A stretch of 64,000 nt of DNA from the IMG/VR virus record IMGVR_UViG_3300010355_000898, positions 32,001-96,000 of that record; one strand, given 5' to 3'. The stretch comes from a virus (taxonomy: Duplodnaviria; Caudoviricetes). The stretch's first letter is position 1; the number at the start of each line of letters is the position of its first letter. The notes under the pieces are model-generated. The model searched no databases, was not told the origin of the DNA, and saw only the letters and a list, made by a program, of their open reading frames with translations. The translations under genes were made by a program, and so were the position numbers. Below are positions 7,314 through 31,846 of the stretch, piece by piece.

Positions 7314-7314
7314 T

Positions 7315-8545: not shown

Positions 8546-8768
8546 AGAATATACATGTGCAGATGAAGTTTGGTTTAGGATTGTTCAAATTGTTCAGGAG
8601 GCACTCCTGACTGGAACTGATTGTGCTGATCTGTTGAGACAGATCAGATTGTCAAAAGGTGATAATGATCAAATGATATTGTCAGCAACATATAAAGAAC
8701 AGGTTAAGAGAATGCATGAGAAGCTCTTGGAAAATGCAGAAGCAATCAAAAATGGAAACCAACAGTGA
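8538..8768 (+). CDS. Hypothetical protein
   Basis: Tiles between coupled neighbours. Confidence 0.6.
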   Translation: MSEEYTCADEVWFRIVQIVQEALLTGTDCADLLRQIRLSKGDNDQMILSATYKEQVKRMHEKLLENAEAIKNGNQQ

Positions 8769-12902: not shown

Positions 12903-12938
12903 TGAACTTCTGATCAATTGTATTGTACAGTTAACAAT

Positions 12939-17906: not shown

Positions 17907-18012
17907 ATTGTGTGAATATGATGAAGAACAAATTTTGTATGATATTACTGTTGACGTCGATCATACATTTTTTTGTAAACAAGGAAATTCTGATTGGTAT
18001 TTGACACATAAT
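17860..18012 (+). mobile_element. Split intein 1, C-fragment (about 51 aa)
   Basis: LYDITVDVDHTFF block F; THN|S block G. Confidence 0.9.
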
Positions 18013-18714
18013 TCAGGTGCACCAGACATAGATTGCGACATCAGTGATCGTGATAAAGTTCTTGAAGTATTGAGAGAAAAGTTTGGAATGAACAATGTTA
18101 TTCCAATTTCAAATATCAACACGTTCAAAGTGAAAACGCTCCTGAAAGATATTTCAAAGTTTTATGGAATTCCATTTGAAGAAGCAAATGAGGCAACAAA
18201 AACTGTTGAAAAGGAGGTCAGAAAGGCAACCATGAAACATGGTGATGATAAAAACCTTTTTGTTCTCAAATTTGAGGATGCAATGAAGTATTCAGAAAGT
18301 TTCAGAAGTTTTATTGAGAGGCATCCTGAGGTTGCAGAGAGTATGGAAATTCTCTTTAAAGAGCAGAGATCATTGGGTCGGCATGCTGGAGGTGTTGTCA
18401 TTATGGATGATGCAATGGGAGAAATGCCTCTCATTACAAATGGTGGTGAACCTCAAACGCCTTGGGTCGAAGGTGTTGGTGGAAAAACGCTTGAACCAAA
18501 TGGAATCATTAAATATGACCTGTTAGGTCTTGAAACAATGAGACTAATTGAAAATACAGTTGAAAAGGTCATAAAGGGTAAAGGAGGCATCAAACAGATT
18601 GAACTTGAGGATGGTACAGTGATGAGATTGCTACCAGATCAATTGGTTATGACACAAAGAGGTGAAGTGTTTGCTAATGAATTGAAGGATGATGATGAAA
18701 TCTTGACGCCATGA
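17860..18714 (+). CDS. dnaE: DnaE part 2: intein C-half, catalytic palm/thumb, degenerate intein-like tail
   Basis: YLTHN|SGAPDIDCD, GRHAGGVV, KYDLLGL; ATG at 17860 inside the endonuclease 3' end. Confidence 0.93.
   Translation: MEQQNILSNNIITSVELCEYDEEQILYDITVDVDHTFFCKQGNSDWYLTHNSGAPDIDCDISDRDKVLEVLREKFGMNNVIPISNINTFKVKTLLKDISKFYGIPFEEANEATKTVEKEVRKATMKHGDDKNLFVLKFEDAMKYSESFRSFIERHPEVAESMEILFKEQRSLGRHAGGVVIMDDAMGEMPLITNGGEPQTPWVEGVGGKTLEPNGIIKYDLLGLETMRLIENTVEKVIKGKGGIKQIELEDGTVMRLLPDQLVMTQRGEVFANELKDDDEILTP
18589..18714 (+). other. Degenerate, non-catalytic intein N-fragment-like tail on DnaE part 2
   Basis: IKQIELEDGTVMRLLPDQLVMTQRGEVFANELKDDDEIL aligns with the distal half of IntN2; lacks Cys1 and the block-B His. 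Confidence 0.75.
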
Positions 18715-18965
18715 TGATAACAATAAAAATGATTGTGTATCGTAAAGGTACGTTAAAGTTTCAATACAATCAACGTTTTGAGAATGGCCATCATGATTTT
18801 TTATTGAAAGAAATCTATGAAGATGTTGTTGATCATGTTTGGCATATGGACGTATATGATACACGTACGTTGACAGGAATGAAACATACACAATTCATCA
18901 TCAATGATTACAGAACAGTGTTGAATAGGTTGAAGCGCGATGTTAACAATACAAAAAATTGTTGA
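18711..18965 (+). CDS. Small hypothetical protein
   Basis: ATGA-coupled to dnaE part 2; MIVYRKG motif. Confidence 0.55.
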   Translation: MMITIKMIVYRKGTLKFQYNQRFENGHHDFLLKEIYEDVVDHVWHMDVYDTRTLTGMKHTQFIINDYRTVLNRLKRDVNNTKNC

Positions 18966-19176
18966 GAATGAACTTGAAAAGAAGGGTTACATATCTCACA
19001 ACAGGTCAGTAACAAAGCAGATGTCATATTATGATATGAATGCGTCAGTTGAACAGAATGGATTGAAATTCATTTCAAGATTGAGTTGTGAACCATACAA
19101 TGTTTGTGTGCTCTTTTACAGGTTTGATCAGTATCAATTCAGTTCAATACTGAATATTGTTCACAATCTTCCATGA
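18940..19176 (+). CDS. Small hypothetical protein
   Basis: Overlapping tiled ORF. Confidence 0.5.
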   Translation: MLTIQKIVENELEKKGYISHNRSVTKQMSYYDMNASVEQNGLKFISRLSCEPYNVCVLFYRFDQYQFSSILNIVHNLP

Positions 19177-19180
19177 ATGA

Positions 19181-20323
19181 TCATTTCTTCCCTGCATGTT
19201 TTTTCAACACTTTGCTGAATGATTGTTTTGGAATATTGGCAAGTTTATCAACAATTTTTTGCTTTTTATCCTGTTCCCATGGATAAATCCCAGAGTTCTC
19301 TGGGTCTGCATCAAACCACATGATTTCACCAACCTTGATATCACTGAGTGATATCACTTCACGCTCATTTGAATATTCATCACTGATGTTTTTGTACCAC
19401 AATCTTGCATCAAGGAAAACATCATCACTGTTCTCATCAGTGTAGGCAACCATTACAATGGGAACCGTTCCACTTTTCATATTACTGTTTTCATTGGCAA
19501 AACGTTTTGCTGTTCTCAGACTCTTAGTCCAACTTCCTGCATTCTTTTTTGGGTGCCATGTGAAACGTTTTTCAATGTGTCCATCCTTGATTGCAACCTC
19601 ACCCTTCTTGGCACCAATAGCAGCCTTCAACCATTCATATTTGACGCCCATTCCCCTGTAAACTTTTTGAACATTTGGTCGTGTGAACACATCATCATAC
19701 AGTCCCTGTTTCAGGATGTTCCTGATTGCAGTGACATACTGAATTTGCATACCAGCATGATCAAGATGACTGCTGATTGCAGTGTGCAGCCGTTGCTCAA
19801 ATTTGTTATCCAATTCTGGCAGATTTCTTTCACTGCCAAAAGCAATCAGATCAAGACGACCCCCACTGTTCTTGCTGCTCTTTTTCAAGAATTTTTGTTT
19901 CTGTTTTTCAGCCTTTATGAATTCATCATGAAACACAGTGTTATACAATTCATGAGCCAAACCTTTTGGATCTTTTCCAGATAGCATATCAAACAATTTT
20001 GTGAACACAGGTTTGAGCACAGTGATCTGTTTTTGATCGAGTCGACCACTAAGATTGAACTCTTTGTATGCTTCTGCCTGTTCATCAGACAAATTTAGCA
20101 ATTGTTTGTAAAAATTGTATCTCTTTTTAGATCTGTCAATTGTTGACAATCCTTTACCACTACTGACGTTGTTGTAAATGATTATTATTGTTTTGATTTC
20201 ATTATCAAATTCCCTGAATTTATCAGCGTATTCTTCGTTCAAAATTTCAGTCAAATACAAAAAATCAGTCATATATTCTTTGAAAAGTTTACCAATCTCT
20301 TTGTCACTTTTGAAATATTGCAT
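19181..20323 (-). CDS. Putative ADP-ribosyltransferase (R-S-E clade) domain protein
   Basis: KVYRGM, GSWTKSLRTAKRFA, YSNEREVI; only long credible minus-strand gene; ATACTTA upstream. Confidence 0.7.
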   Translation of the reverse strand: MQYFKSDKEIGKLFKEYMTDFLYLTEILNEEYADKFREFDNEIKTIIIIYNNVSSGKGLSTIDRSKKRYNFYKQLLNLSDEQAEAYKEFNLSGRLDQKQITVLKPVFTKLFDMLSGKDPKGLAHELYNTVFHDEFIKAEKQKQKFLKKSSKNSGGRLDLIAFGSERNLPELDNKFEQRLHTAISSHLDHAGMQIQYVTAIRNILKQGLYDDVFTRPNVQKVYRGMGVKYEWLKAAIGAKKGEVAIKDGHIEKRFTWHPKKNAGSWTKSLRTAKRFANENSNMKSGTVPIVMVAYTDENSDDVFLDARLWYKNISDEYSNEREVISLSDIKVGEIMWFDADPENSGIYPWEQDKKQKIVDKLANIPKQSFSKVLKKHAGKK

Positions 20324-20338
20324 ACTAAAACTTAATTG

Positions 20339-20345
20339 TAAGTAT
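20339..20345 (-). promoter_or_regulatory. Putative late promoter ATANTTA
   Basis: ATACTTA on the minus strand, 15 nt upstream of the ART-like ATG. Confidence 0.55.
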
Positions 20346-20347
20346 AT

Positions 20348-20602
20348 GTGAATACTGTCACAGTTGGGTTTTATAATCAGAGCATGAACTCATTGAGACC
20401 AACAGATATATCAGGTTTGATCAGGTACACAATTGAACAGTTGTCAGAGATATCTGCACAGAATGGTGAGCTGAAATTGTCAACAGATGATTTAGAGAAG
20501 AGATTGCGATCTGCAATTGCAGTGTTGAAGGTTGTGGATGAAAAGATTGAACTTGTGAGAATGATGTTGGTAAAACTTCCAGATGATTGTGAACAGGAAT
20601 GA
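20348..20602 (+). CDS. Small coiled-coil hypothetical protein
   Basis: ORF divergent from the ART-like gene. Confidence 0.5.
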   Translation: MNTVTVGFYNQSMNSLRPTDISGLIRYTIEQLSEISAQNGELKLSTDDLEKRLRSAIAVLKVVDEKIELVRMMLVKLPDDCEQE

Positions 20603-20741
20603 ATTATGTTAACGTTGAGAATATACAGAGACAACATTGGATCCATATCAGGAAATGATCTCACACAGTGTGAAGAGCACACAGTCAAGATGATATCAAA
20701 AAAGCGCCCAAGAATTATGAAAATCATTATTGGTTTATTGA

Positions 20742-21002
20742 ATGAACACAGTTGAAATTTTGTTGTCATCCAAAATTGACACACTCAAAGTGTACAAAAC
20801 TGGACTTTGGGCATTTATGTATTCAGGAAATTGTGTTCTGCTGTGGAATCCACGAATTGTTAACAGAACAATTTCTGATCATGATGGCTTTTTGGTTAAC
20901 GATCTGAGCACTGATGTCATGACATTGTGGGATTGGGAAACTATGACAAGATTGTGCAGTCTGAACACTGATGAATTCAGGGAAAGATTTGGCTTATTGT
21001 GA
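20742..21002 (+). CDS. Small hypothetical protein
   Basis: LKVYKTG motif; tiled. Confidence 0.5.
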   Translation: MNTVEILLSSKIDTLKVYKTGLWAFMYSGNCVLLWNPRIVNRTISDHDGFLVNDLSTDVMTLWDWETMTRLCSLNTDEFRERFGLL

Positions 21003-21244
21003 ATCTCAAATTGAAGGTGCACAGAGCTGGTTATGGCAGTTTTGTTTGGGGAGATCATAAAGTTGTATTTTTTCCGGAAATTCCGAAAATGTATGACGAC
21101 AGTAGAATTCTGATGTCATATTCAAGAATTCACATTCTAAATCATTGGTTATTCAAATATAATCATCAATTTTTTGTTGAAATGAGTGAGTGCAAAAACG
21201 TTGAACAATTGATGAAAGTTTTCAATGATTGGAAATTCAAATAA
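20999..21244 (+). CDS. Small hypothetical protein
   Basis: LKVHRAG motif; GTGA overlap. Confidence 0.5.
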   Translation: MNLKLKVHRAGYGSFVWGDHKVVFFPEIPKMYDDSRILMSYSRIHILNHWLFKYNHQFFVEMSECKNVEQLMKVFNDWKFK

Positions 21245-21530
21245 ATTCAATAGTGAACAGTTGATGGAAATGTGGAATTCTGTTATTCGAACAACAGACT
21301 ATGTTGACAAAAAATGGATTGGTTTAAGAGTTTATTGTGATGGTGGTTGGCTTGTGTTTGTGTATGTCAGTGACAGATTGGGTGATGACATATGGGCACC
21401 CAATTTTTATACCAAACCAGAAAAGATGACAAGATTTCCAGATTTGGAAACACTCAACTATGATGATTTCAAAAGGGTGATATTGGATGAAAATAAGAAA
21501 TATTACAACAGAACAACCAGAATTTCTTGA
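21225..21530 (+). CDS. Small hypothetical protein
   Basis: LRVYCDG motif; overlaps the start of dnaE part 3. Confidence 0.5.
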   Translation: MIGNSNKFNSEQLMEMWNSVIRTTDYVDKKWIGLRVYCDGGWLVFVYVSDRLGDDIWAPNFYTKPEKMTRFPDLETLNYDDFKRVILDENKKYYNRTTRIS

Positions 21531-22119
21531 TATCAAGAAGTGGTATGAACAGAATCTTCATCCTGATGCAAACAATTATGATGATCAGAAAACATTTGAT
21601 GTCTACAAAGGTGAAGCATTCCCTGGGATATTTCAGTTGACATCAAAGGGTGCGCAGAGACTGTTCAGACAAGCAGAGCCAAAGTCAATTGTTGACATTG
21701 CTGTGTTGACAGCAATCTATAGACCTGGACCCTTGGCTGCAAATGTTGACAAGATCTATCTCAAGGCAAAGAAGGGTGAAAAGTTTGAATGGGGGCATCC
21801 ACTCTTTGAAAAAGTGTTGGGAGAAACATATAATTGTCTCACAGGTGATACACTAATTCTATTGGCAAATTTGCAACAAAAAAGTTTAAGTGATATAGAA
21901 ATTGGTGATGAGATCATATCATTCAATGAAAAAACTCAACACTATGAGCAAGACATTGTTAAGGCAAAAGTTTGTAATGGAACTCAAGATCTCATTATGA
22001 TAGAAACTGAAACAGGGACATTAAAATGCACACCAGAACATAAAATTATGACAAAGAGAGGTTGGGTATGTGCTGGTGATTTAATGGAAGATGATGAGAT
22101 TGTGAGTTATGAAATTTAG
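21487..22119 (+). CDS. dnaE: DnaE part 3: IntC-like stub, fingers segment, split-intein N-half
   Basis: DDQKTF, GIFQLTS, AIYRPGPL, LGETYN|CLTGDT. Confidence 0.93.
   Translation: MKIRNITTEQPEFLDIKKWYEQNLHPDANNYDDQKTFDVYKGEAFPGIFQLTSKGAQRLFRQAEPKSIVDIAVLTAIYRPGPLAANVDKIYLKAKKGEKFEWGHPLFEKVLGETYNCLTGDTLILLANLQQKSLSDIEIGDEIISFNEKTQHYEQDIVKAKVCNGTQDLIMIETETGTLKCTPEHKIMTKRGWVCAGDLMEDDEIVSYEI
21835..22119 (+). mobile_element. Split intein 2, N-fragment (94 aa)
   Basis: CLTGDTLI block A; CTPEHKIMTKRGW block B. Confidence 0.92.
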
Positions 22120-23089
22120 TAAACGATGTGTACATTGTAATATAGAATATCTTTCAAAAAAAATTGATTCAAAATATTGTTCAAGAGCTTGTAAAGATGC
22201 GCATTCTAGAACATTAAAAAAGGGTGTATGTGTTATTTGCGGTTGTGAAACAAGATGTGAACGTGTAAAAACTTGTTCAAAATATTGTAAGTCTCTTTAT
22301 CTTAAAAGCAAAAAAGAAACAATTGAATGGAAAGAAGCGCGAACTGAAATAATATGTCAAATGTGCAATAAGACATTTATTGTTTCAAATAGTAGAAAAT
22401 CACGTAAATGTTGTTCGAAAAAATGTGCTTATGAATTAAGATCAATTTTGTACAAAGGAAGAACAATAACGCCTGAATGGAAAGCAAATCAAAATTTAGG
22501 TAAAAAACGTGAAAATATTGTGAAATTTGGTGATTTTGAATGTGAAAAATGTCACAAAAAATTTGAAACAAATCTTTCTTTAAGGTCTCATAAATCATAT
22601 TGTAGTGCTGATCAAGAACAACGAAATGTTACGTGTGAAATTTGTGGTAAAGTTTTCAAAAGAAATCGAAATTTTCTTGCACATTATCAATTACATGACG
22701 AAGAAAAATATAGGCAGCATTGTTTATCAGTTAAAGAAGGTGTAAAATATCGTTCTGCACCTCAAACAACATCAAATCAAGAATTGCAATTCTATAAAAT
22801 ATTGTGTGATTTTTATGGTCAAGATAACGTTGTACACAAGTTCAAACTACAAGAAAGTGGTCATGAATATGACTTTTATGTCAAAAGTCTAAATCTAATC
22901 ATTGAATTTGATGGTGATTATTGGCATGGAAACAAAGAATGTTTTGAATTAACAGATAAAATGAAACAACAATTCAATATTGATATATCACATACAAAAC
23001 GAGCCATAAAAGAAGGTTACGATTTACAAAGAGTATGGGCATCAAAAATGGACATATATCCAAATGAATTAAGAGTTTTACCAATATGA
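22109..23089 (+). CDS. Free-standing homing endonuclease: zinc repeats, C2H2-type fingers, Vsr/DUF559-like domain
   Basis: CxxC...CSxxC repeats; CEICGKVFKRNRNFLAHYQLH; YDFY, IIEFDGDYWHG. Confidence 0.85.
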   Translation: MKFSKRCVHCNIEYLSKKIDSKYCSRACKDAHSRTLKKGVCVICGCETRCERVKTCSKYCKSLYLKSKKETIEWKEARTEIICQMCNKTFIVSNSRKSRKCCSKKCAYELRSILYKGRTITPEWKANQNLGKKRENIVKFGDFECEKCHKKFETNLSLRSHKSYCSADQEQRNVTCEICGKVFKRNRNFLAHYQLHDEEKYRQHCLSVKEGVKYRSAPQTTSNQELQFYKILCDFYGQDNVVHKFKLQESGHEYDFYVKSLNLIIEFDGDYWHGNKECFELTDKMKQQFNIDISHTKRAIKEGYDLQRVWASKMDIYPNELRVLPI

Positions 23090-23193
23090 TTTACACTAAA
23101 GTGAAATCTATAAAACACATCAATAAAGATGTGACATATGATATTCAAACTGGGAATCATAATTTCATTGCAAATGGAATTCTCGCACATAAT
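23086..23193 (+). mobile_element. Split intein 2, C-fragment (36 aa)
   Basis: MIYTKVKSI...TYDIQTGNHNFIANGILAHN|C. Confidence 0.93.
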
Positions 23194-24396
23194 TGTTTAA
23201 TTTTCCAAGAGTCAGTCATGGAATTGGCCGAAATCATTGGGCTTTTCCCCAAAGACCAATGTGATAACGTTCGTAGAGCAATTATGAAACGTGATCTTTC
23301 AAAGGGTGAGGCTGCCATAGCAGAAGCAAAGAAAATGGAAGATCAATTTGTTGATGGTGCTGTCAGTCAGGGTATCAAAGAAGAGACAGCACGACAAGCA
23401 TATCAGAATATATTGTTCTATTCTTCATACGGGTTCAACAAAAGCCATGCAATCGCTTATGCAATTGATTCATATATGTGTGCATGGCTACTGACACACT
23501 ATGAAAAGGAATGGTTGACAACCTATCTTGAGAGCATGTCAAACAATCCTGATGATAAAGCAACAGCAATTGGTGAAATCAGAAAACTTGGTTACAAGAT
23601 TGTTCCAATTGATGTGCAATATGCAGGAAAAGGTTGGACATGCATTGAAGGAAAAAAATTCATGCCATCACTCCTATCATGTAAGGGAGTTGGTGAGAGT
23701 GCAGTTGAAGAATTGTTGTCAATGCGTCCAATCACTGATTTCAAAGATATGTTTTGGAATGCTGATGGAAGTTGGCGACCATCAAAATTCAACTCAAAAG
23801 CACTTGATGCACTCATTAAGTTGGGAGCATTCGGTTCATTGGATGTTGTTGGCTCAGGAAAGCTGTTCAGATCATACAAACATATGCATGATGTTATGAT
23901 TGTGCACAAGGATGAAATCAAAAAGGTTTCAAAACGTGATCAGTATCAGGGTTACAACAATTTTTTGCGACTCATTGATGAGTATGCACAAAAGTATGAT
24001 GCAGAAGAGTTGCCGGGTGAATGGACAAAACGTGAATTGGCAGATTTTCAAGCAGAAATTCTTGGGACAGTTGATGTAAGAATGATCATTGATGATGAAA
24101 TCTGGGGTACACTTGAAACAAAAGGCATCAAATCTGTTGATGAACTTGAGCAGGGTGAGAAGGAGGTCGTTTGGTTTGTTGTCAATGGTTCAAATCTGAA
24201 AAGGACAAAGACTGGAAAAGAATTCCTGAGTGCTGAAGTCATGGGTTCAAAATCAAAAATTGAACGCATGAACATTTGGGGTTGGAAGAGTGATAAGAAC
24301 GTGATCAAGAATTTGACATTGTGCATAGCAGAGGTTGAAAAGAATGATTTTGGTGCATCAACAACAAGTTGGAAATTGAAAACATTGGGTGAATAA
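23086..24396 (+). CDS. dnaE: DnaE part 4: intein C-half, fingers/HhH/OB C-terminal region
   Basis: ILAHN|CLIFQES, SYGFNKSHAIAY, KGVGES, LIKLGAF. Confidence 0.94.
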   Translation: MIYTKVKSIKHINKDVTYDIQTGNHNFIANGILAHNCLIFQESVMELAEIIGLFPKDQCDNVRRAIMKRDLSKGEAAIAEAKKMEDQFVDGAVSQGIKEETARQAYQNILFYSSYGFNKSHAIAYAIDSYMCAWLLTHYEKEWLTTYLESMSNNPDDKATAIGEIRKLGYKIVPIDVQYAGKGWTCIEGKKFMPSLLSCKGVGESAVEELLSMRPITDFKDMFWNADGSWRPSKFNSKALDALIKLGAFGSLDVVGSGKLFRSYKHMHDVMIVHKDEIKKVSKRDQYQGYNNFLRLIDEYAQKYDAEELPGEWTKRELADFQAEILGTVDVRMIIDDEIWGTLETKGIKSVDELEQGEKEVVWFVVNGSNLKRTKTGKEFLSAEVMGSKSKIERMNIWGWKSDKNVIKNLTLCIAEVEKNDFGASTTSWKLKTLGE

Positions 24397-24838: not shown

Positions 24839-25402
24839 ATGATCATAATTTTTGTTGGCGCTGATATGTGTGGTAAAACAAACATTGCCCATCAACTTTC
24901 AAGAGTTCTCAATATTCCTGTTTTCAAGGCATCAAGTGAACATGGAAGCTTCCTGCATGGTCAGGATAGATTCTTGACAAACATAAGGGTTTCATCACAA
25001 TATTTGCTTGATTTCATTAGACAGACAGGCAGCAGTGTCATATTTGATCGTGAATTTCCTTGTGAATATGCATATTCAAAACATTTCAATAGGGAAACAG
25101 ACATCGATGCAATCATGGCACTTGATGAGGGATATTCTAAACTTGATACATTGATCATTCATTGCAAAAGAAAGTCATTCAGTGGAATACGTGATGATCT
25201 TGATCAATCAATAGACGAAAACAGTCTCAACAGTATTCAGAGACATTACGATGACTTCAGAATGATTTCTGGATGCAAATGGTTGGAATTGTTTGTTGAT
25301 GACGAAAATATTGAGAGAGAGCTCCAGGAGATAAGAGAAAAGATGTTGGAAGTATTTCCATTGTGGGCACTCTCTGAAACACAAAGTTATATTTTGGACT
25401 GA
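24839..25402 (+). CDS. Deoxynucleoside monophosphate kinase (thymidylate kinase-like)
   Basis: GADMCGKT P-loop; IFDREFPCEYAYS. Confidence 0.8.
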   Translation: MIIIFVGADMCGKTNIAHQLSRVLNIPVFKASSEHGSFLHGQDRFLTNIRVSSQYLLDFIRQTGSSVIFDREFPCEYAYSKHFNRETDIDAIMALDEGYSKLDTLIIHCKRKSFSGIRDDLDQSIDENSLNSIQRHYDDFRMISGCKWLELFVDDENIERELQEIREKMLEVFPLWALSETQSYILD

Positions 25403-25420
25403 ATCGGAGAATTGACAATT

Positions 25421-26704
25421 ATGAAAAAAATGATTCTTTGGCAACTTCAACTTTCACTGTACAATGAACAGGGCAAATTTGTTTTCACAGCAGACAGCAA
25501 TTGGCAAATGATGGCAACAAAATTGCTCAATATGTTGAAGTTGAATCCTGAACTGTATGTTGACATTCTTGTTCCAGATGTGAAAGATTGTGCAGAGGGT
25601 GAAAAACCTGCTGAACTTTTGTGGAAACTGTTGGGTCAGCAGTTGTTCAAACGTGTTAAACTGTTGAGTGTTCCAATTGCACCCTCTGCACTCAGGACAA
25701 GGTATGATTTTCCATATGAAAGTTACAAAAAAGCTCTCGATTTTGTGCATTGGGACAATGTTGGTGAGAGATACACACATGTGTATGTAAATGATCCAAT
25801 GTTTGTAGGAAATCTTAAAACGTTGTTTCAACTTGAATACCATTATCAACCAATGTTCATCGTGCAAACACACTTTCTTGACAGCCCAACAGCAAGAATC
25901 GTTCCAAAAGAGGTTGAATATTGGCATAGTCAAGTTGTTGGAAATTTGAAAGCTGATGTGTGTTTGTGGCATTGCAAAACAATGGAACAGATCTTTTTTG
26001 ATGATCTTGGCAAAGATTATCAACAACATATTGTTGAGAACATCATGAAAAAATCTGATGTTTGGAAGGATGGTTATTCAACAGAGGAGATCAGAAAACC
26101 GGTTGATGTCAACAATGTGCGCTTTTTGAAACAATTTGAACAATTGCGAAAATCTGGAAAAAAGATTGTTTGGGTGCCAAACAGAGTTGGCGGGTTGGGA
26201 AGATCAAGCGATTACACAAATTGTGGCAAGTTTCTGTTTGAACTGGTTCCAGAATTGTGGAAGACACGACAAGATTTCATAATTTTGGCAGGAAATCCAA
26301 ATCAGAAGATCAGTAATGATGAAATTGCTGAATTGTGTCCGGCATATGTCAAATTGGTTGATACTGCTCTGAATAGGGATGAATACAGGTTTTTGTCACA
26401 AAATTGTGATATTGTTGGTGCGTTCTATACTGTTGACACAAATGGAGGATATGCCTCACTTGAGGCTGTTGAATTTGGTGCAATACCACTTTACCCAAAT
26501 CTGTATGAATATAAGGTCTATTTTGATGCAGTCAATTGGCCAGATGAATTGAGAGGAAAACCAGATCTTTCAGACATTGGTGATGTGTTGGGAAGGCTGA
26601 TTGATACAAATCCTGATGTGACAAAACTTCAAAAATTTGTCAGAGAGTATGCTTCATATGAACATACAACAGAACAGTTCATGAAGAAATATGATCTATT
26701 GTGA
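25421..26704 (+). CDS. Putative GT-B fold glycosyltransferase (candidate DNA glycosyltransferase)
   Basis: IVWVPNR, LNRDEYRFL, GGYASLEAVEFGAIPLYP resemble a GT-B C-terminal donor-binding motif; context. Confidence 0.65.
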   Translation: MKKMILWQLQLSLYNEQGKFVFTADSNWQMMATKLLNMLKLNPELYVDILVPDVKDCAEGEKPAELLWKLLGQQLFKRVKLLSVPIAPSALRTRYDFPYESYKKALDFVHWDNVGERYTHVYVNDPMFVGNLKTLFQLEYHYQPMFIVQTHFLDSPTARIVPKEVEYWHSQVVGNLKADVCLWHCKTMEQIFFDDLGKDYQQHIVENIMKKSDVWKDGYSTEEIRKPVDVNNVRFLKQFEQLRKSGKKIVWVPNRVGGLGRSSDYTNCGKFLFELVPELWKTRQDFIILAGNPNQKISNDEIAELCPAYVKLVDTALNRDEYRFLSQNCDIVGAFYTVDTNGGYASLEAVEFGAIPLYPNLYEYKVYFDAVNWPDELRGKPDLSDIGDVLGRLIDTNPDVTKLQKFVREYASYEHTTEQFMKKYDLL

Positions 26705-26719
26705 TACGTAAATTGTGTT

Positions 26720-26938
26720 ATGGCACACACATGCAGATGCAACAAAGAGTTGCTTTCAGGTGAATCATTTTGTAAAGATTGTGTTGAAAAGTTGACAAAT
26801 GAATGGTGGAATAGTGCAATTGAATGCCTAATTCATGACATCATGAGTCACAATCACAACCTTTCAGATGATGAAAAATCAAAATTTGTGAAACTTTGCA
26901 AAGGCGTAATGCTTCCAGAGGTGAATGATGACATATGA
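26720..26938 (+). CDS. Small Cys-rich hypothetical protein
   Basis: CRC...CKDC. Confidence 0.5.
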   Translation: MAHTCRCNKELLSGESFCKDCVEKLTNEWWNSAIECLIHDIMSHNHNLSDDEKSKFVKLCKGVMLPEVNDDI

Positions 26939-27122
26939 ATATATTTGCAAAAATTGTGGCCTTCAATTTGAGGCAGAACAGAAGATAACAGAAGAGCCCT
27001 TGATTCACTGTGAGAAATGTGGACACAATTCATTGAAGAGATTAATCAATCAGCAATCAGGATTTATTCTGAAGGGTTCTGGATGGTACAGAGATGGTTA
27101 TGGAAATGTTGGTAAAGGTTAA
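26928..27122 (+). CDS. FmdB-family zinc-ribbon protein
   Basis: YEYICKNCG...CEKCG..LKRLI...FILKGSGWYRDGY. Confidence 0.88.
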   Translation: MTYEYICKNCGLQFEAEQKITEEPLIHCEKCGHNSLKRLINQQSGFILKGSGWYRDGYGNVGKG

Positions 27123-27345
27123 CATATCAAAGCAACAAGCATGGGATACTGAAAATTTTATTCCATTGAATAGTGATTTTGAATTGCATAATTTGATACA
27201 TAGGGATGAAAATGTAATCATAACAAAGTTTGATGATGATTACTATATCTGGTCATTTAGCGGAAGTCAACAATGCACAAATTCATTTGATAAACGTGTC
27301 AAATTTATTGATGAAAGTTCATTAGAAAAGATATACGCAATATGA
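27100..27345 (+). CDS. Small hypothetical protein
   Basis: Tiled; ATGA overlap with the next gene. Confidence 0.5.
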   Translation: MEMLVKVNISKQQAWDTENFIPLNSDFELHNLIHRDENVIITKFDDDYYIWSFSGSQQCTNSFDKRVKFIDESSLEKIYAI

Positions 27346-28322
27346 AAAATATTCTGATAACTGGAGTGGCTGGTTTTATTGGTAGCAATCTTGCAAATGA
27401 ATGTATAAAGATTGGTCTCAACGTTGATGGCGTTGATGATTTTTCAAATGGTCATAAAGAATTTGTGCCAACAGGAATGGGAACATTGTATGCAAATGAT
27501 TTCTCTGACAAAAACATTGTTGACAATGTTGAGCATGGTGTTTATGACACAATTTTTCACCTTGCAGCAATGCCAAGAGTTTCATACAGCGTTGAGTATC
27601 CATATGAAACAAATGATGTGAATGTAACAAAAACATTGAAACTTTTTGAAGCATTGAGAAAAGCTGGTAACAGAACAAAACTGATATTTGCATCAAGTTC
27701 ATCAGTTTATGGTGGAGCGACAGTTGATCAATATGGAAAAGTTCTTGGACAATCAGAAACTGATACAAAACACCCAGTTTCACCATATGCATTGCAAAAG
27801 TCAATAATTGAAGATTATGCTGTGATGTATGCAAACTATTACAAATGCAACATTGCATCAATGAGATTTTTCAATGTTTTTGGCAAAAATCAGTTGGGTG
27901 GATCTCCATATTCAACTGCAATTTCAGCATGGTTGACTGCAATAAAGTTTGGAAAAAAATTGAGATTTGATGGAGATGGTACACAGAGCAGAGATATGTG
28001 TCATGTTGACAATGTTGTTCATGCGCTCATTCTTGCTGGGAAATCTGCCAACATATTCAATGGTGATGTATACAACGTTGCAACTGGGACAAGAATAAGC
28101 AATAATGAAATTTTGTGGCTCATCAATCAGAGATTGCCAAACAAGGGTATGATCATGGCGCCAACAAGGATGGGTGATGTGAAACATACACTTGCAAACA
28201 TATCAAAAATCAAAAATGATCTGAAGTATGAGCCAATTGTTGATGTAAAAACTGGAATTGATATGACAATTGATTGGTACACAACAAATTGGGAACAGAT
28301 CAAAATGTTGTCTTCGATTTGA
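27342..28322 (+). CDS. NAD-dependent nucleotide-sugar epimerase/dehydratase
   Basis: ITGVAGFIGS, HLAA, ASSSSVYG, SPYALQK, RFFNVFG, GDGTQSRD. Confidence 0.92.
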   Translation: MKNILITGVAGFIGSNLANECIKIGLNVDGVDDFSNGHKEFVPTGMGTLYANDFSDKNIVDNVEHGVYDTIFHLAAMPRVSYSVEYPYETNDVNVTKTLKLFEALRKAGNRTKLIFASSSSVYGGATVDQYGKVLGQSETDTKHPVSPYALQKSIIEDYAVMYANYYKCNIASMRFFNVFGKNQLGGSPYSTAISAWLTAIKFGKKLRFDGDGTQSRDMCHVDNVVHALILAGKSANIFNGDVYNVATGTRISNNEILWLINQRLPNKGMIMAPTRMGDVKHTLANISKIKNDLKYEPIVDVKTGIDMTIDWYTTNWEQIKMLSSI

Positions 28323-28369
28323 AATATGAACAATTTGATGACATTCTGTACAATCTGTTTGAGGAAAAT

Positions 28370-29344
28370 ATGACAGAGCACACATACAAATCATTCACAG
28401 ATGCATTTGCTGGATTGGCAAAATTGGTAAACAATCCAGAATATGTTTGTCAACCGCGAGGAATGAAGATCAAAGAACATCTTGGCGTCAAGTTTGTGAT
28501 CACAAATCCAAGAGATAGACTGCTATTCATTCCAGAACGAAAATTTTCATTATCATATATGATGGGTGAAATTCTTTGGTACATCAGTGGAAACAATTCA
28601 ACTGAATGGATTTCAAACTATTCTCAGTTTTGGTCAAATATCAGTGACGATGGCGTAACTGCAAACAGTGCTTATGGTTCAAGAATATTCAAACCACATG
28701 ACAGAATTTGTGGTGCTGAACATGATTGGACACAATGGCAATATGTTATTGATGAATTGAAGAGAGATCCTGACAGTAGGAGAGCTGTTATTCATATAAG
28801 ATCACCAAAAGACAGTATGCTTGCTGTGAAAGATGTGCCATGCACATTGACGTTGCAATTTTTCATTAGGGATGGTAAATTGCACCAAATTGTATCAATG
28901 AGAAGTTCAGATCTCATTTTTGGAATATCATATGATGTTCCTGCGTTCACATTCTTTCAAGAGATGTTGGCAAATGAACTTGGCGTTGAATTGGGATCAT
29001 ATGTGCACATAAGCAATTCACTCCATGTTTATGAGAGGCATTTTGAAATGCTTGATAAAATTGCAAAAAATTCAGGATATAGTTCAATTCCTATGAACGC
29101 AATGCCAAATATCACAAATAATGTAATTCAACAATTGATTCAAGAAGAACAGATTATTCAACGTTATAAATCAGAAGCTGATATTGTCAGCTTCAATTCT
29201 TGGTTAAAGAGTGAAAAACATGAATATTGGCATGACATGATACAAATATTGCTTATGCACAAAGCTCAGAAATTATCTGTGAATGAAAACATTATTCAAG
29301 AACTGAAAAATGGGTTGTTTGACAGGAGCTTGAAATCTTTATGA
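28370..29344 (+). CDS. Thymidylate-synthase-fold enzyme, probable dCMP hydroxymethylase/modifying enzyme
   Basis: AYGSR, DSRRAV, DVPCT, MRSSDLIFGISYD (Asp at the specificity position), SLHVYERH. Confidence 0.82.
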   Translation: MTEHTYKSFTDAFAGLAKLVNNPEYVCQPRGMKIKEHLGVKFVITNPRDRLLFIPERKFSLSYMMGEILWYISGNNSTEWISNYSQFWSNISDDGVTANSAYGSRIFKPHDRICGAEHDWTQWQYVIDELKRDPDSRRAVIHIRSPKDSMLAVKDVPCTLTLQFFIRDGKLHQIVSMRSSDLIFGISYDVPAFTFFQEMLANELGVELGSYVHISNSLHVYERHFEMLDKIAKNSGYSSIPMNAMPNITNNVIQQLIQEEQIIQRYKSEADIVSFNSWLKSEKHEYWHDMIQILLMHKAQKLSVNENIIQELKNGLFDRSLKSL

Positions 29345-29892
29345 CATGTATAGTTGGTTATGCTGATGGAAAATATGTTTGGTTGGCTGGGGATGCATCA
29401 GCAAATGGTATCAATGATGCAATATCAACAATAACTGTCCCAAAAGTTTTCAAGAAGGGAAAAATGTTGTTTGGATTTTGCCAATCATTCAGGATGGGTC
29501 AAATTCTTCAATACTGTTTTGATCCACCAGAAGATAACAGAGATGATCCAAATGAATACTTTGTGTGTGATTTCATTCCTGCATTGAAGAGAATATATGC
29601 TCAACATGAATATGAAGCATCTGGTGAAAATCATGGCGCAATCATTGTTGGGTATAAAGGAAGGTTGTTCACAATCGAAGAGGATTTTGGTGTTTTAAGT
29701 GATACATCAATGTATACATCAATTGGTTCAGGATCAGATGTTGCATTGGGTGCAATGTGTGCGTTGTATGAAACTGTGAAAGATCCAGTCATTTTGCTCA
29801 TTAAAGCTCTTTCAATCTCTGAAAAACACATTTCAACTGTGAGAAAACCTTTTACAATTGTTTCAACAAAAAAGGATAAGAATGAAAAATAA
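29341..29892 (+). CDS. Ntn-hydrolase, HslV/proteasome-beta-like peptidase
   Basis: N-terminal MTCIVG, LAGD, PKVF, SIGSGS..ALGA. Confidence 0.8.
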   Translation: MTCIVGYADGKYVWLAGDASANGINDAISTITVPKVFKKGKMLFGFCQSFRMGQILQYCFDPPEDNRDDPNEYFVCDFIPALKRIYAQHEYEASGENHGAIIVGYKGRLFTIEEDFGVLSDTSMYTSIGSGSDVALGAMCALYETVKDPVILLIKALSISEKHISTVRKPFTIVSTKKDKNEK

Positions 29893-30445
29893 TACATTCA
29901 GAATGTTTGTTGGACCAATGTTTAGTTCAAAAACAAGCCATCTGATGTCTGCACTTGAAAAGTGCAAATATCAACAGAAATCAATTGTCGTGTACAAACC
30001 ATCAATTGATGATCGGTATTCAACGTCTGATGTTGTTACACACAATGGTTTCAAATGGCCTGCAACTGTAATAAAAACTGGTGAAGACATTTTTGAACAC
30101 CTATCAAATCCTTCAATTGAACCAAATGTAATTGCTGTTGATGAAGCATTCATGATACCAGATGTTGCTGATGCATTGATATGGCTGTACAGAAATGGAA
30201 TTGATATCATTGTGTCATCACTTGACATGTCATCAAGTTGTAAACCTTTCAAAGAGATTGAAAAGATGTTCCCGTGGGCAACACACATTGAAAAGTGCAC
30301 AGCTGTTTGCACAGTGTGCGGTGAAGATGCCCACTTTACTCACAAAAAGAACATATCAGATCAGGAAATTGAAGTTGGTGGTTCTGATCTGTATGAACCC
30401 AGATGTCATCAACATCATCCAAATTTTATGCTGAAAGTTGATTAA
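29882..30445 (+). CDS. tdk: Thymidine kinase
   Basis: GPMFSSKT, IDDRY, AVDEAF, AVCTVCG, VGGSDLYEPRC. Confidence 0.93.
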   Translation: MKNNTFRMFVGPMFSSKTSHLMSALEKCKYQQKSIVVYKPSIDDRYSTSDVVTHNGFKWPATVIKTGEDIFEHLSNPSIEPNVIAVDEAFMIPDVADALIWLYRNGIDIIVSSLDMSSSCKPFKEIEKMFPWATHIEKCTAVCTVCGEDAHFTHKKNISDQEIEVGGSDLYEPRCHQHHPNFMLKVD

Positions 30446-30971
30446 TGTGCACATAATAACATACTCAGGAAATCTGTTCAATCCACTTGAACCCAAAAAG
30501 TGTGTCATCAATATTGAAGACATTGCGCATGCATTATCAAATATGTGCAGATTTTCAGGACATACAAAACAATTCTATTCTGTTGCACAACACAGTGTTC
30601 TTGTTTCAAATTATGTAAATCCAGTGAACAGTTTTGCTGCTCTGCTCCATGATGCGTCAGAAGCATACATAGTTGACATTCCAACACCTTACAAAATGAC
30701 ATCAATGTTTTCTGAATACAGGAATGTTGAAAAAGTGTTAATGGATGAAATCTATCACAGATTTCATATTGAAAATTTTGATCAGGATGACATAAACAGT
30801 GCAGATCACAGAGTGTTTGCAGCAGAAGTGAGAGATCTGATGCAATATTCTGCGTATGATGACTGGAATATCAAATCACAGCCTGTGAAAGAGGTGATTG
30901 TTCCATTATTGCCTCATGAGGCAGAACAGTTGTTCATTAATCGTTTCATAAAGTTGAGGGAACAATTATGA
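30438..30971 (+). CDS. HD-domain phosphohydrolase (5'-deoxynucleotidase-like)
   Basis: DIAHALS, RFSGH, YSVAQHS, LLHDASEAY. Confidence 0.9.
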   Translation: MINVHIITYSGNLFNPLEPKKCVINIEDIAHALSNMCRFSGHTKQFYSVAQHSVLVSNYVNPVNSFAALLHDASEAYIVDIPTPYKMTSMFSEYRNVEKVLMDEIYHRFHIENFDQDDINSADHRVFAAEVRDLMQYSAYDDWNIKSQPVKEVIVPLLPHEAEQLFINRFIKLREQL

Positions 30972-31846
30972 ATATAGAAAATTGTGTTGTTTGTGGGAAA
31001 CCTATGCAAACAGATTGTGAAAAACAGTTGTATACACAACACAATGTGTGTTCTGCAAATTGTAAATTGACACTTGAAAAAAAGAAATTTCATGAATTCA
31101 ATCATGACAAGAGGATTGAACAATTGAAATCATATTTGACTGTAAAATCTGTGAGAATGTGTTACAATGCAGACCCAGGTTATGATGAATATCATCCAAA
31201 TCTGTTTGTTGAATATTGGAATGGTGAAAAATGTTATGAATTCATGAATGCACCTTTGGATGATGAGCAATTCAATCTGTACAAAATGGCAACAGAATTT
31301 TACAGATCTAAAGGTTTCAAAGTTAAGTTCATGAATTGGCGAAAAACTGAAAATTTTGTTCAAGTTGAAAGGAATTACAATAATGACTTTGGTGTATGGT
31401 CTCGTCCAACTTTTCAATCAATCTATATGCAAACTGCCTGCTCTTTTAGAGATCGTTCAACGTGTATCAGACGACAAGTTGGTGCTGTTTTTGTCAATGA
31501 TGAATTTACACGTGTAATTTCAGTTGGATACAATGGTGGAATTTCTGGTGCAAAAAATCAGTGTGACACAACAATTCCTGGAGCTTGTGGATGTATACAT
31601 GCTGAAGTGAATGCAATCATGAAGGCTCAGGAGCCCCTGAAAAATTCAATTCTGTTTGTTACATTATCTCCTTGTCAGAATTGTGCAAAACTTCTGGCGA
31701 TGAAGAAGGTTGGTACAGTGTACTATTTATCACAATATCGTGATACTGCTGGCATTGATATATTGAAATCGAATGGTGTTAACGTTATTGATTGGCAATC
31801 ATATGCAATGCATGAATTTGAACAGAATTTGAATGCTCAATATTGA
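30968..31846 (+). CDS. dCMP deaminase with long N-terminal extension
   Basis: STCIRRQVGA, GYNG, IHAEVNA, TLSPCQNCAK. Confidence 0.88.
   Translation: MNIENCVVCGKPMQTDCEKQLYTQHNVCSANCKLTLEKKKFHEFNHDKRIEQLKSYLTVKSVRMCYNADPGYDEYHPNLFVEYWNGEKCYEFMNAPLDDEQFNLYKMATEFYRSKGFKVKFMNWRKTENFVQVERNYNNDFGVWSRPTFQSIYMQTACSFRDRSTCIRRQVGAVFVNDEFTRVISVGYNGGISGAKNQCDTTIPGACGCIHAEVNAIMKAQEPLKNSILFVTLSPCQNCAKLLAMKKVGTVYYLSQYRDTAGIDILKSNGVNVIDWQSYAMHEFEQNLNAQY

Follow-up and report, generated by a model that had tools for sequence, protein, structure and literature searches.

A polymerase-linked gene module predicted to make 5-hydroxymethylcytosine in a DnaE-type jumbo phage, with a candidate DNA glycosyltransferase

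A group of phage genes beside a DNA polymerase gene very likely serves to make 5-hydroxymethylcytosine (hmC) for the phage DNA, as judged from active-site residues. By analogy with known systems, glycosylation of this DNA by the module's glycosyltransferase, which belongs to an unnamed family, is probable. We lean towards the combination of both, an hmC-DNA pathway of the T4 type in which cytosine is replaced before replication and the DNA is then glycosylated.

The window analysed is a stretch of 64,000 nucleotides. It comes from an uncultivated wastewater phage of about 270 kb (record of 269.5 kb), a jumbo phage of the DnaE type. The module genes adjoin the phage DNA polymerase gene and all lie on the + strand. 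Every gene named in the initial annotation was found where it had been placed, and the described clustering of a kinase, a GT-B-like protein, an epimerase and an enzyme of thymidylate synthase (TS) fold was confirmed (phrog_761, an AF2 model with GT-B fold, PF01370 and PF00303, respectively). The module and the related genes are as follows.

407–799, + strand: trimeric dUTPase, separate from the all-alpha protein at 8752–9129
6441–7923, + strand: ThyX (6441–7313) and Tmk (7300–7923), independent dTMP/dTDP supply
8752–9129, + strand: small all-alpha NTP pyrophosphohydrolase, a relative of T4 gp56; as a candidate dCTPase it would lower dCTP and provide dCMP for the hydroxymethylase
24839–25402, + strand: nucleotide kinase of Tmk/YorR-like fold, 187 aa; candidate 5-hydroxymethyl-dCMP kinase
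25412–26704, + strand: GT4-like GT-B glycosyltransferase of an unnamed family, 427–430 aa; candidate DNA 5-hmC glycosyltransferase
26720–27345, + strand: three small ORFs (72, 65 and 83 aa) between glycosyltransferase and epimerase, the middle one a zinc-ribbon protein
27342–28322, + strand: NAD-dependent nucleotide-sugar 4-epimerase, a WbgU/WbpP/TviC-like SDR; possible sugar-donor supply
28370–29344, + strand: MilA-like TS homologue, extended at the C-terminus by a helical segment; predicted to be a dCMP hydroxymethylase
29858–30445, + strand: thymidine kinase (TK; PF00265, 7e-40), conserved downstream neighbour of the module
30968–31846, + strand: dCMP deaminase with a 145-aa N-terminal extension; dCMP to dUMP for the separate ThyX route

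Kinase, GT-B, epimerase and a TS homologue with Asp at position 177 occur together in 27 IMG/VR loci, and also in loci L004/5 and L041-43. Because the arrangement recurs in these 27 loci and several other assemblies, it is not due to chance. In most related loci, TK follows the TS homologue on its downstream side. The small ORFs are outside the conserved module: only the 65-aa one, which gave weak matches to FmdB/Zn-ribbon PHROGs, has homologues in related loci, and their positions vary.

The TS fold of the 28370–29344 product was recognized by PF00303 (2e-31) and phrog_5131 (2e-57), and this gene is the sole PF00303 match in the 269.5-kb record. Its best PDB match is the CMP 5-hydroxymethylase MilA (2e-42, residues 2-296). 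The Asp-for-Asn change pointed out in the initial annotation is real: when the motif MRSSDLIFGISYD was aligned to RSCDVFLGLPFN of E. coli, Asp was found at N177. The whole signature reads E58, W80, Y94, R126, R127, L143D, C146, H147T, R166, S167, D169, N177D, H207 and Y209, and of the 15 active-site positions of ThyA that were compared, 14 match T4 gp42, including L143D, H147T, D169 and N177D. N177D is a marker of dCMP as substrate, L143D/E separates hydroxymethyl from methyl products and is linked to water access, and D169N marks the newly described 5-hydroxylation of dCMP (PMC13326640). On cytosine-modified metagenomic contigs, TS homologues are marked by the residues at 147 and 177, the latter mostly Asp (PMC8670742). 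Ser167 and Arg126, the marks of deoxyribose substrates (PMC5175136), are both present. Modification of cytosine at position 5, as originally proposed, is thus strongly supported by the sequence, and L143D and D169 sharpen the proposal to a hydroxymethyl group. Together, L143D, N177D and the retained D169 tell hydroxymethylation apart from methylation and 5-hydroxylation; with D169 retained, the predicted product is a folate-dependent 5-hydroxymethylcytosine.

The P-loop kinase at 24839–25402 matched Pfam AAA_28 (1e-5) and phrog_761, annotated 'thymidylate kinase' (5e-7), a PHROG that it shares with RB69 gp45 (1.6e-45). When the profile of the kinase family was compared by hhalign, RB69 gp45 scored 95.9% (E 5e-9, 139 columns) and T4 gp1 2%. 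The AF2 model (pLDDT 89) had YorR (3kb2) and thymidylate kinases as top Foldseek matches, and the Walker A motif GxDxCGKT and a DR..PCE.xYS motif are conserved across 16 homologues. The dNMP kinase of the initial annotation therefore stands as a nucleotide kinase of the RB69 gp45 type, while an identity of the T4 gp1 type was rejected on the hhalign scores.

The glycosyltransferase probably starts at ATG 25421 or 25430. No Pfam, PHROG or NCBIfam model matched the 430-aa protein. Its AF2 model (pLDDT 92.5, pTM 0.88) has a GT-B/GT4-like fold, with VIA-align Z scores of 28.4 for BshA, 27.5 for sucrose-phosphate synthase (SPS; 6kih) and 27.2 for MshA (3c4q), the same structural neighbours as those reported for DNA arabinosyltransferases (PMC13326640). 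Structural matches in BFVD include proteins of phages Muldoon and KARL-1 and RB69ORF047c. All 294 homologues are unnamed, and many lie on contigs of 200-350 kb. A tblastn search of 50,697 phage records gave no match, and no sequence similarity to T4 alpha- or beta-GT, RB69 gp46:47 or any cultured-phage protein was detectable. DNA glycosylation is the best reading of this fold and context by analogy, albeit an inferential one, as the GT4 fold is generic and takes many kinds of acceptor.

The distribution of the genes bears on this reading. In the 27 GT-B loci, every TS found has the full signature (L016 ends short of the TS slot), and wherever the flank is long enough, all GT-B loci except one (L125) also have a signature-bearing TS-fold gene. 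Among DnaE-anchored loci, GT-B was never found without TS; five loci have TS without GT-B, one of them in a record that is 96% complete. Such nesting of GT-B within TS is expected if GT-B needs the TS product. However, two changes suffice to explain GT-B presence on the DnaE tree, with about one gain; the essentially single origin means that shared ancestry accounts for much of the co-occurrence. The TS slot is occupied by three different lineages, one of which groups with T4 gp42 (support 100/100, 50-57% identity).

The strongest competitor, which we regard as possible though unlikely, is that TS homologue and kinase make hmC-DNA, but GT-B and epimerase glycosylate a target other than DNA (virion proteins, or a glycan assembled by way of the large glycosyltransferase locus of the phage), the DNA carrying plain hmC or being modified by another enzyme. 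Besides the generic fold and the five loci that keep TS without GT-B, the exceptional L125 points this way: on this 283-kb contig, the kinase–GT-B pair lies in a cluster of GT2, GT11, GT4 and epimerase genes beside a gp25-like baseplate gene, and no TS was found within 10 kb of the pair. Elsewhere in the phage genome lies a further glycan locus, about 17 kb long and with a UGDH gene, that could also use these sugar enzymes. Against a non-DNA target, GT-B in all loci save L125 lies between the kinase and a TS with the hydroxymethylase signature, in a block of replication and nucleotide-metabolism genes away from structural genes; it stayed in place while three lineages refilled the TS slot; and the trio architecture has been linked experimentally to DNA glycosylation in RB69, DLP3 and RL38J1. 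The proposed glycosylated cytosine survives as the best reading of fold and context, tempered by the generic fold, the missing sequence link to a known DNA glycosyltransferase and the nearly single gain.

The epimerase also bears on the non-DNA target. It matched PF01370 (9e-47), WbgU (4e-47) and WbpP (4e-44) in the PDB, scored under every NCBIfam equivalog cut-off, and has the motifs GxxGxxG and Y149xxxK153. Its orthologues (40-56% identity) adjoin TK in relatives without TS and GT-B, including near-complete ones. An SDR epimerase does adjoin the other genes, as had been noted, but since it is kept in such relatives it is no dedicated part of the cluster and is only weakly tied to DNA modification.

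Other activities of the TS homologue were also weighed. It may be a flavin-dependent 5-hydroxy-dCMP synthase like RB69 gp48, GT-B placing a sugar straight on 5-hydroxycytosine; this we consider improbable. The kinase–glycosyltransferase–TS trio with a gp45-type kinase does resemble the RB69, DLP3 and RL38J1 clusters, for whose enzymes MilA is also the reported top structural match (PMC13326640), and the enzyme shares 31% identity with RB69 gp48 (E 4e-26). However, D169N is absent: Asp169 is found in this enzyme (RSSD in the alignment) and in 27 of 27 neighbours, and Asn in RB69 gp48 (RSQN). W80, a residue of the folate pocket in ThyA, is kept, and is Ala in RB69 gp48. Since the active site carries the T4 gp42-type signature, the enzyme should be neither such a synthase nor a dTMP synthase. 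Still less likely is a dCMP methyltransferase, which would leave 5-methylcytosine in the DNA. N177D by itself turns ThyA into a dCMP methylase, a result for which Liu and Santi (1992) and Hardy and Nalivaika (1992) are cited in passages of PMC13326640 and PMC8670742. Here, however, Asp occupies position 143, just as it does in T4 gp42 and MilA, and the nearest solved relatives are hydroxymethylases, so the enzyme is probably no methylase. Least likely of all is a dTMP-forming ThyA, or a MilA-like CMP hydroxymethylase of a small-molecule (nucleoside antibiotic-like) pathway, with unmodified DNA: PF00303 and NCBIfam thymidylate synthase models match, and MilA, the top PDB match, has a UDP-glucuronate-dependent transferase as partner, but the NCBIfam scores are far under the cut-offs, N177D, H147T and L143D exclude canonical ThyA, ThyX already supplies dTMP, where MilA has Lys133 and Ala176 for ribose (CMP) preference this enzyme has the Arg and Ser of deoxy-specific enzymes, and in sister phages the same slot holds an orthologue of T4 gp42.

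Nucleotide-pool genes fit dCMP hydroxymethylation. As initially annotated, dTMP supply is covered separately, by ThyX (phrog_85, 2e-78; PF02511, 5e-16), Tmk (PF02223, 4e-8) and TK; with the independent ThyX/Tmk supply, the TS-fold enzyme is dispensable for thymidylate. The dCMP deaminase matched PF00383 (1.7e-19, at G000:63418-63729) and phrog_174 (1.2e-45, residues 146-279). The all-alpha gene described beside the trimeric dUTPase is present, and its product matched PF08761 (2.7e-6) and phrog_12184 (1.5e-16), phrog_173 (3.8e-9) and phrog_18650, three PHROGs that T4 gp56 matches as well. BLASTP similarity to T4 gp56 is limited (E 5e-7 across the C-terminal 42 residues; both proteins end in NGY). 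Homologues lie 4-5 kb upstream of GT-B in L009, L018 and L032. The limited gp56 similarity counts against the pathway, as does a search for MazG-domain proteins, which found none.

In the favoured hmC pathway, the gp56-like pyrophosphohydrolase would convert dCTP to dCMP, which the TS homologue, given its complete active-site signature, would convert with methylene-tetrahydrofolate to 5-hydroxymethyl-dCMP. The gp45-type kinase would form the diphosphate and host NDP kinase the triphosphate, and the phage DnaE polymerase would insert hm-dCTP instead of dCTP. After replication, GT-B would move a sugar from a UDP-sugar to the 5-hydroxymethyl group in DNA, as gene context and the analogy to the RB69, DLP3 and RL38J1 trios suggest. 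In the weakest step, the WbgU-like 4-epimerase may supply a non-glucose donor. Thymidylate would come from a separate route of dCMP deaminase, ThyX, Tmk and TK.

The logic is that of T4 (gp56 dCTPase, gp42 dCMP hydroxymethylase, gp1 dNMP kinase, alpha/beta-glucosyltransferases), with a TS signature like that of gp42, gp42 orthologues in sister loci, a gp56-related pyrophosphohydrolase, a dCMP deaminase and separate dTMP supply. In contrast to T4, the TS is of the long MilA-like type, sharing just 29% identity with gp42, and the kinase has no relationship to gp1. The GT4-like glycosyltransferase, beside which a sugar 4-epimerase is encoded, shows no similarity to GT72/GT63 enzymes, and the polymerase is DnaE rather than T4-type family B. 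The three-gene core is shared with RB69 gp45-48, Acinetobacter phage DLP3 gp78-80 and Rhizobium phage RL38J1 gp214-216 (PMC13326640): TS and kinase are homologous to gp48 and gp45, in both cases the first glycosyltransferase is a GT-B resembling MshA, SPS and BshA, and enzymes for unusual sugar donors are phage-encoded nearby. Those enzymes, however, have D169N and make 5-hydroxycytosine with flavin (PMC13326640), GT-B has no sequence-level similarity to gp46:47, the donor candidates here are SDR epimerases/decarboxylases instead of an arabinose-5-phosphate route or Galf mutase, and the present phage is of the DnaE jumbo type and falls outside Straboviridae and Pootjesviridae. MilA of mildiomycin biosynthesis (PDB 5jnh, 5b6d) aligns over nearly its full length, including the C-terminal extension, and likewise carries Asp in place of N177 and L143, but belongs to an antibiotic cluster whereas the present gene lies among phage replication genes. 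The closest cultured-phage TS relative is Bacillus phage G gp319 (34% identity over 95% of the length), with the same phrog_5131 and signature, near DnaE, dCMP deaminase and a glycosyltransferase gene; the latter, gp313, is a T4 alpha-GT homologue (phrog_2888, 5.7e-162) and not of the GT4-like family, and an adjacent epimerase or gp45-type kinase is absent from the phage G stretch compared. In TET/5mYOX-dependent clusters, phage glycosyltransferases related to those of LPS and teichoic acid attach hexose, HexNAc or heptose to 5hmC (Pyle et al., bioRxiv 10.1101/2023.12.21.572611); there, hmC is made after replication by methyltransferase and dioxygenase, whereas here the TS homologue would supply it ahead of replication. 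If our reading is true, the module would shield the phage DNA from host nucleases in the manner of T4 and RB69.

The window (bases 32001-96000) belongs to an IMG/VR phage record of 269,547 bases with an estimated completeness of 74%, and almost all of its genes lie on the plus strand. Megablast of the cluster against 50,697 deposited phage records gave no nucleotide-level match. All genes named in the initial annotation were found in the window by Pfam, PHROG and PDB profile and structure matches; the ones considered here are listed below.

Genes of the window considered in the analysis (window coordinates, strand where given, description)
407-799, plus, trimeric dUTPase
7916-8545, MT-A70 family adenine methyltransferase (PF05063, 7e-30)
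8752-9129, plus, small all-alpha gp56-like protein (phrog_12184, phrog_173, phrog_18650)
24839-25402, plus, P-loop kinase, 187 aa (weak matches to AAA_28 and phrog_761, 'thymidylate kinase')
25412-26704, plus, GT-B protein, 430 aa (matches no Pfam, PHROG or NCBIfam model)
27342-28322, plus, extended-SDR epimerase (PF01370, 9e-47)
28370-29344, plus, TS-fold protein (PF00303, 2e-31; phrog_5131, 2e-57)
29341-29892, HslV/Ntn-hydrolase-like protein, 183 aa (phrog_1040, 5.5e-20)
30438-30971, HD-domain deoxyribonucleoside 5'-monophosphate phosphatase (phrog_318, 3.9e-58)
30968-31846, plus, dCMP deaminase, 292 aa, shortly downstream of the module (deaminase domain, residues 146-279)

The best solved relative of the TS homologue is MilA, the CMP 5-hydroxymethylase of mildiomycin biosynthesis, which it matches at 2e-42 over residues 2-296, extra C-terminal helices included. 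We aligned the protein with E. coli ThyA, T4 gp42, RB69 gp48, gp319 of phage G and the TS homologues of related loci. In E. coli ThyA numbering, it has E58, W80, Y94, R126, R127, C146, R166, S167, D169, H207 and Y209, together with the exchanges L143D, H147T and N177D. Of the 15 positions checked, the TS homologue shares 14 with T4 gp42 and differs from it in the R21 column; the catalytic residues C146 and E58 are invariant across the alignment. The stretch RSSDLIFGISYD puts Asp at position 177, and alignment with E. coli ThyA and T4 gp42 bore out the Asp-for-Asn exchange proposed initially. Position 143 is likewise Asp (KDVPC), as in T4 gp42 and MilA. It was previously reported that N177D turns the substrate choice of TS-fold enzymes to dCMP and that an acidic residue at 143, associated with access of water, accompanies hydroxymethyl, not methyl, products (PMC13326640). 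In a metagenome-wide association, residues 147 and 177 marked the TS homologues on cytosine-modified contigs, with 177 mostly Asp (PMC8670742). Ser and Arg at the sites of MilA Ala176 and Lys133 indicate a deoxyribose rather than a ribose substrate (PMC5175136); the TS homologue has S167 and R126 there, as in deoxy-specific enzymes.

Canonical ThyA was rejected as an identity, as positions 177, 147 and 143 are D, T and D instead of Asn, His and Leu, and the best NCBIfam ThyA score, 95 bits, falls short of the cut-off (327). The protein is the sole TS-fold gene in the 269.5-kb record, and dTMP supply is, as first suggested, covered separately by ThyX (phrog_85, 2e-78), Tmk and TK; the trimeric dUTPase is present as well. 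A small-molecule pathway like that of mildiomycin was also rejected, in view of the deoxy-specific residues and of gp42 orthologues in sister phages. Judged by its active-site residues, the TS homologue is very probably a dCMP hydroxymethylase (dCMP + CH2-THF -> 5-hm-dCMP), and we are equally confident in predicting that the phage synthesises hmC.

The structural model of the kinase (pLDDT 89) has YorR and thymidylate kinases (Tmk) as its Foldseek neighbours. The kinase matches phrog_761 at 5e-7, a family matched by RB69 gp45 at 1.6e-45, and hhalign of the kinase family profile with RB69 gp45 gave 95.9% (E 5e-9). Profile, Walker A motif and Tmk-like fold all place it in the RB69 gp45 type. With T4 gp1 hhalign gave 2%, indicating no relationship, and a search of the 269.5-kb record (about 74% complete) at E 1 revealed no gp1 relative. 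The initial call of a dNMP kinase is therefore right in that the protein is a nucleotide kinase, but it is of the RB69 gp45 type and not of the T4 gp1 type. In the three characterised 5-hydroxycytosine clusters, RB69 gp45, DLP3 gp78 and RL38J1 gp214 are the 'nucleotide kinases' that neighbour the TS homologue and glycosyltransferase 1 (PMC13326640).

The protein at 8752-9129 matches phrog_173 (3.8e-9), phrog_12184 (1.5e-16) and phrog_18650, the same three families that T4 gp56 matches, which confirms the all-alpha dCTPase/dUTPase-like gene read there before. BLASTP against T4 gp56 gave an E of 5e-7 over the C-terminal 42 residues, and the all-alpha metal motifs ExxE...ExxD are present as HECMHELFE and EELSD. 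By sequence it belongs to the T4 gp56 dCTPase/dUTPase family and is a candidate dCTPase. A search of the genome for the MazG domain (PF03819) found none. ORF 8514-8768 was considered as a frameshifted N-terminus of this pyrophosphohydrolase and rejected, as the related loci L009, L018 and L032 likewise encode the homologue as a separate protein of about 125 aa.

Several neighbouring genes deserve mention. The MT-A70 gene is flanked by Tmk and the gp56-like pyrophosphohydrolase; from its family, it would be a second DNA modification, independent of the cytosine one. The HslV-like protein directly 3' of the TS homologue is kept in most related loci (27-37% identity). Between TK and the dCMP deaminase sits the HD-domain phosphatase, which may trim a canonical dNMP pool, and the 145-aa N-terminal extension of the deaminase matches nothing. 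The ribonucleotide reductase large subunit (3246-6413) has an intein. DnaE (15161-24396) is divided into several ORFs, the interruptions being intein halves, HNH genes and endonuclease-I-like genes; in relatives it ranges from a single uninterrupted ORF (locus L043) to several split pieces.

The GT-B protein matched nothing among the Pfam (Glycos_transf_1, Glyco_trans_4), PHROG and NCBIfam models at E 0.01. Its family comprises 294 homologues, unnamed among the matches listed, many of them on contigs of 200-350 kb, and the Pfam field was empty for all 120 homologues listed. Tblastn against 50,697 phage records gave no match, hence no detectable homologue in a cultured phage; family members were found on uncultivated-phage contigs only. 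The AlphaFold model, built from a 38-sequence alignment (pLDDT 92.5, pTM 0.88), has two Rossmann-like domains that superpose on GT4 enzymes. VIA-align matched it to BshA with Z 28.4 (346 residues, rmsd 3.3 A), to sucrose-phosphate synthase 6kih with Z 27.5 and to MshA 3c4q with Z 27.2. These three enzymes are also listed as structural neighbours of the DLP3 and RB69 DNA arabinosyltransferases (PMC13326640).

Among the top viral-model matches are uncharacterised Muldoon and KARL-1 phage proteins as well as RB69ORF047c, one half of the RB69 arabinosyltransferase 1, for which Foldseek gave an E of 9.5e-6. When the family profile was compared with RB69 gp47 by hhalign, no signal was obtained (0.4%). 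Judging from the model, the likeness to the RB69 enzyme is one of fold alone. The protein falls in none of the known families of DNA hmC/hoC glycosyltransferases (T4 alpha-GT, phrog_2888; T4 beta-GT; RB69 gp46:47, phrog_3891). As a proxy for DNA binding, the isoelectric point does not discriminate: GT-B is acidic (pI 5.7), as is the RB69 DNA arabinosyltransferase gp46/47 (5.0-5.4), and T4 beta-GT has a pI of 9.05. On structural grounds, the protein appears to be a glycosyltransferase of the GT4-like (retaining) kind. The 'GT-B-like' label given initially was thus correct by fold, but the acceptor, taken to be DNA, is not readable from the fold.

The epimerase has the UDP-HexNAc 4-epimerases WbgU and WbpP as its best PDB matches (4e-47). 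The NAD-binding GVAGFIG (GxxGxxG), Y149ALQK (YxxxK) and PF01370 place it among the UDP-hexose/HexNAc 4-epimerases, and it scores below the NCBIfam cut-offs for TviC (167 bits versus 760) and GalE (128 versus 262). About 17 related loci with neither TS nor GT-B have an orthologue (40-56% identity) adjoining TK, and both TS and GT-B are absent throughout epimerase-bearing records of 87% and 93% completeness. Since the orthologues persist in such relatives, the epimerase predates the hmC module and is independent of it. The window also encodes a UDP-glucuronate decarboxylase (UDP-xylose synthase, 12918-13901; 3e-83 to human UXS1), and a UDP-glucose dehydrogenase lies elsewhere in the record (G000:C1:195512-195988); the phage would therefore be able to make UDP-GlcA and UDP-xylose itself. 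According to their sequences, each of these sugar functions could serve the glycosylation of DNA or of the virion. After the decarboxylase, the region 12918-14917 continues with genes for a GNAT acetyltransferase and a metallophosphoesterase.

An IMG/VR scan with the GT-B alignment yielded 27 loci, and four more assemblies were read via identical-protein look-ups. The order in nearly all is DnaE, kinase, GT-B, epimerase, TS homologue, HslV-like protein, TK and dCMP deaminase. Wherever a TS homologue was found among the 27 loci it carries the full hydroxymethylase signature; L016 stops short of the TS slot. Three lineages fill this slot, namely the long MilA-like type of the window, an 'RSQD' type and a T4 gp42-like clade, which groups with T4 gp42 at 100/100 support (50-57% identity). 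The slot was refilled without loss of the signature, which argues for retention of the hydroxymethylase function beside GT-B.

With the C-terminus of DnaE as anchor, a second scan yielded 80 loci. Here, TS always accompanies GT-B. Five loci have TS but no GT-B throughout their records, of which one is 96% complete; in most of the five, the kinase lies directly upstream of TS. About 60 loci have neither TS nor GT-B. In the DnaE tree (81 loci), the GT-B phages group into what is essentially a single clade containing one nested loss, and the nearest outgroups are TS-only phages. In the nested L049 (record 44% complete), GT-B and epimerase are missing together and kinase and TS are kept. The nesting of GT-B within the TS distribution fits a glycosyltransferase dependent on the TS product. 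It is weak as independent evidence because it is based on about one gain. Two changes suffice for GT-B and likewise for TS, and for this reason independent co-gain or co-loss is not demonstrated.

In the closest GT-B relatives (54% identity), the kinase-GT-B pair is retained (L125:1458-18000, on the 283-kb ENA contig k141_1455642). A Lon protease, three epimerases and four glycosyltransferase genes (GT2, GT11 and two of GT4) surround it, a gp25-like baseplate gene adjoins, and no TS-fold gene lies within 10 kb of the pair. This pair lacking a nearby TS, and the presence of the epimerase in relatives without TS or GT-B, both speak against the dedicated four-gene cluster of the initial annotation.

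From the gene identities and active-site residues, which are directly observed, we infer the following enzymatic steps. The gp56-like enzyme would deplete dCTP and provide dCMP, which the TS homologue would convert into 5-hm-dCMP. The gp45-type kinase and the host NDP kinase would then produce hm-dCTP for incorporation by the fragmented, intein-bearing DnaE. Finally, GT-B would glycosylate the DNA hmC using a UDP-sugar, possibly a non-glucose donor from the 4-epimerase. Sequence, model and analogy make the whole statement, hmC synthesis followed by glycosylation of DNA by GT-B, the reading we moderately favor.

Four alternatives were ranked. The first is that hmC is made and GT-B acts on a target other than DNA. 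The glycosyltransferase and epimerase genes around the L125 pair speak for this possibility, and the constant company of TS and GT-B in the DnaE-anchored loci for glycosylation of DNA; we consider a non-DNA target rather unlikely. Ranked next is a 5-hydroxycytosine pathway, in line with the kinase-glycosyltransferase-TS order. For the 5-hydroxy-dCMP synthases of RB69, DLP3 and RL38J1, which depend on flavin, D169N is the diagnostic exchange (PMC13326640). However, the window keeps Asp169 (RSSD) where the aligned RB69 gp48 reads RSQN, which contradicts an enzyme of the gp48 type and makes this pathway very improbable. 5-Methylcytosine DNA would also employ a cytosine-specific TS homologue, but it is contradicted by L143D and is still less probable. 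DNA not modified at all comes last and is the least probable.

The glycosylation of DNA hmC favored here shares its pathway logic with T4, and the window has the same kinase-glycosyltransferase-TS trio as RB69, DLP3 and RL38J1. In contrast to the 5-hydroxycytosine of these phages, the predicted base is hmC from a MilA-like enzyme. Unlike in the known systems, the glycosyltransferase family is unnamed and outside every sequence model, the nearby sugar enzymes are different, and the virus is a DnaE-type jumbo phage. In the literature, we found no description of the GT-B family or of cytosine modification in this phage clade. That a phage whose TS homologue has Asp177 modifies cytosine will not surprise a specialist; the noteworthy parts are the unnamed glycosyltransferase family and the likely non-glucose sugar.

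In Bacillus phage G (JN638751; locus L036:1296-7032, gp313-gp319), the MilA-like TS homologue gp319 shows the complete dCMP-hydroxymethylase signature, gp313 is homologous to the T4 alpha-glucosyltransferase (phrog_2888, 5.7e-162), and a dCMP deaminase lies between them. From the signature of gp319 and the homology of gp313, the DNA of phage G is predicted to contain glucosyl-hmC. Its anomalous PFGE size was ascribed in a 2025 paper to an unidentified base modification, and hmC was never mentioned there.

A broader reading, which we put forward only tentatively, is that the GT4-like family of about 300 members represents new DNA 5-hmC glycosyltransferases using a non-glucose sugar, with every cytosine being a chemically still undescribed glycosyl-hmC across a widespread DnaE-type jumbo-phage clade. 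The sugar would then be a HexNAc, hexuronate or pentose, derived from the WbgU-like epimerase and possibly from the phage's UGDH/UXS route. If true, there would be a clade of environmental DnaE-type jumbo phages with fully substituted, glycosylated cytosine, which would bear on their escape from restriction and CRISPR, on their recovery in sequencing libraries and on whether DnaE-type polymerases take hm-dCTP. An unannotated family would gain a function, and the kinase-glycosyltransferase-TS module would be extended from the 5-hydroxycytosine phages to a 5-hydroxymethylcytosine version.
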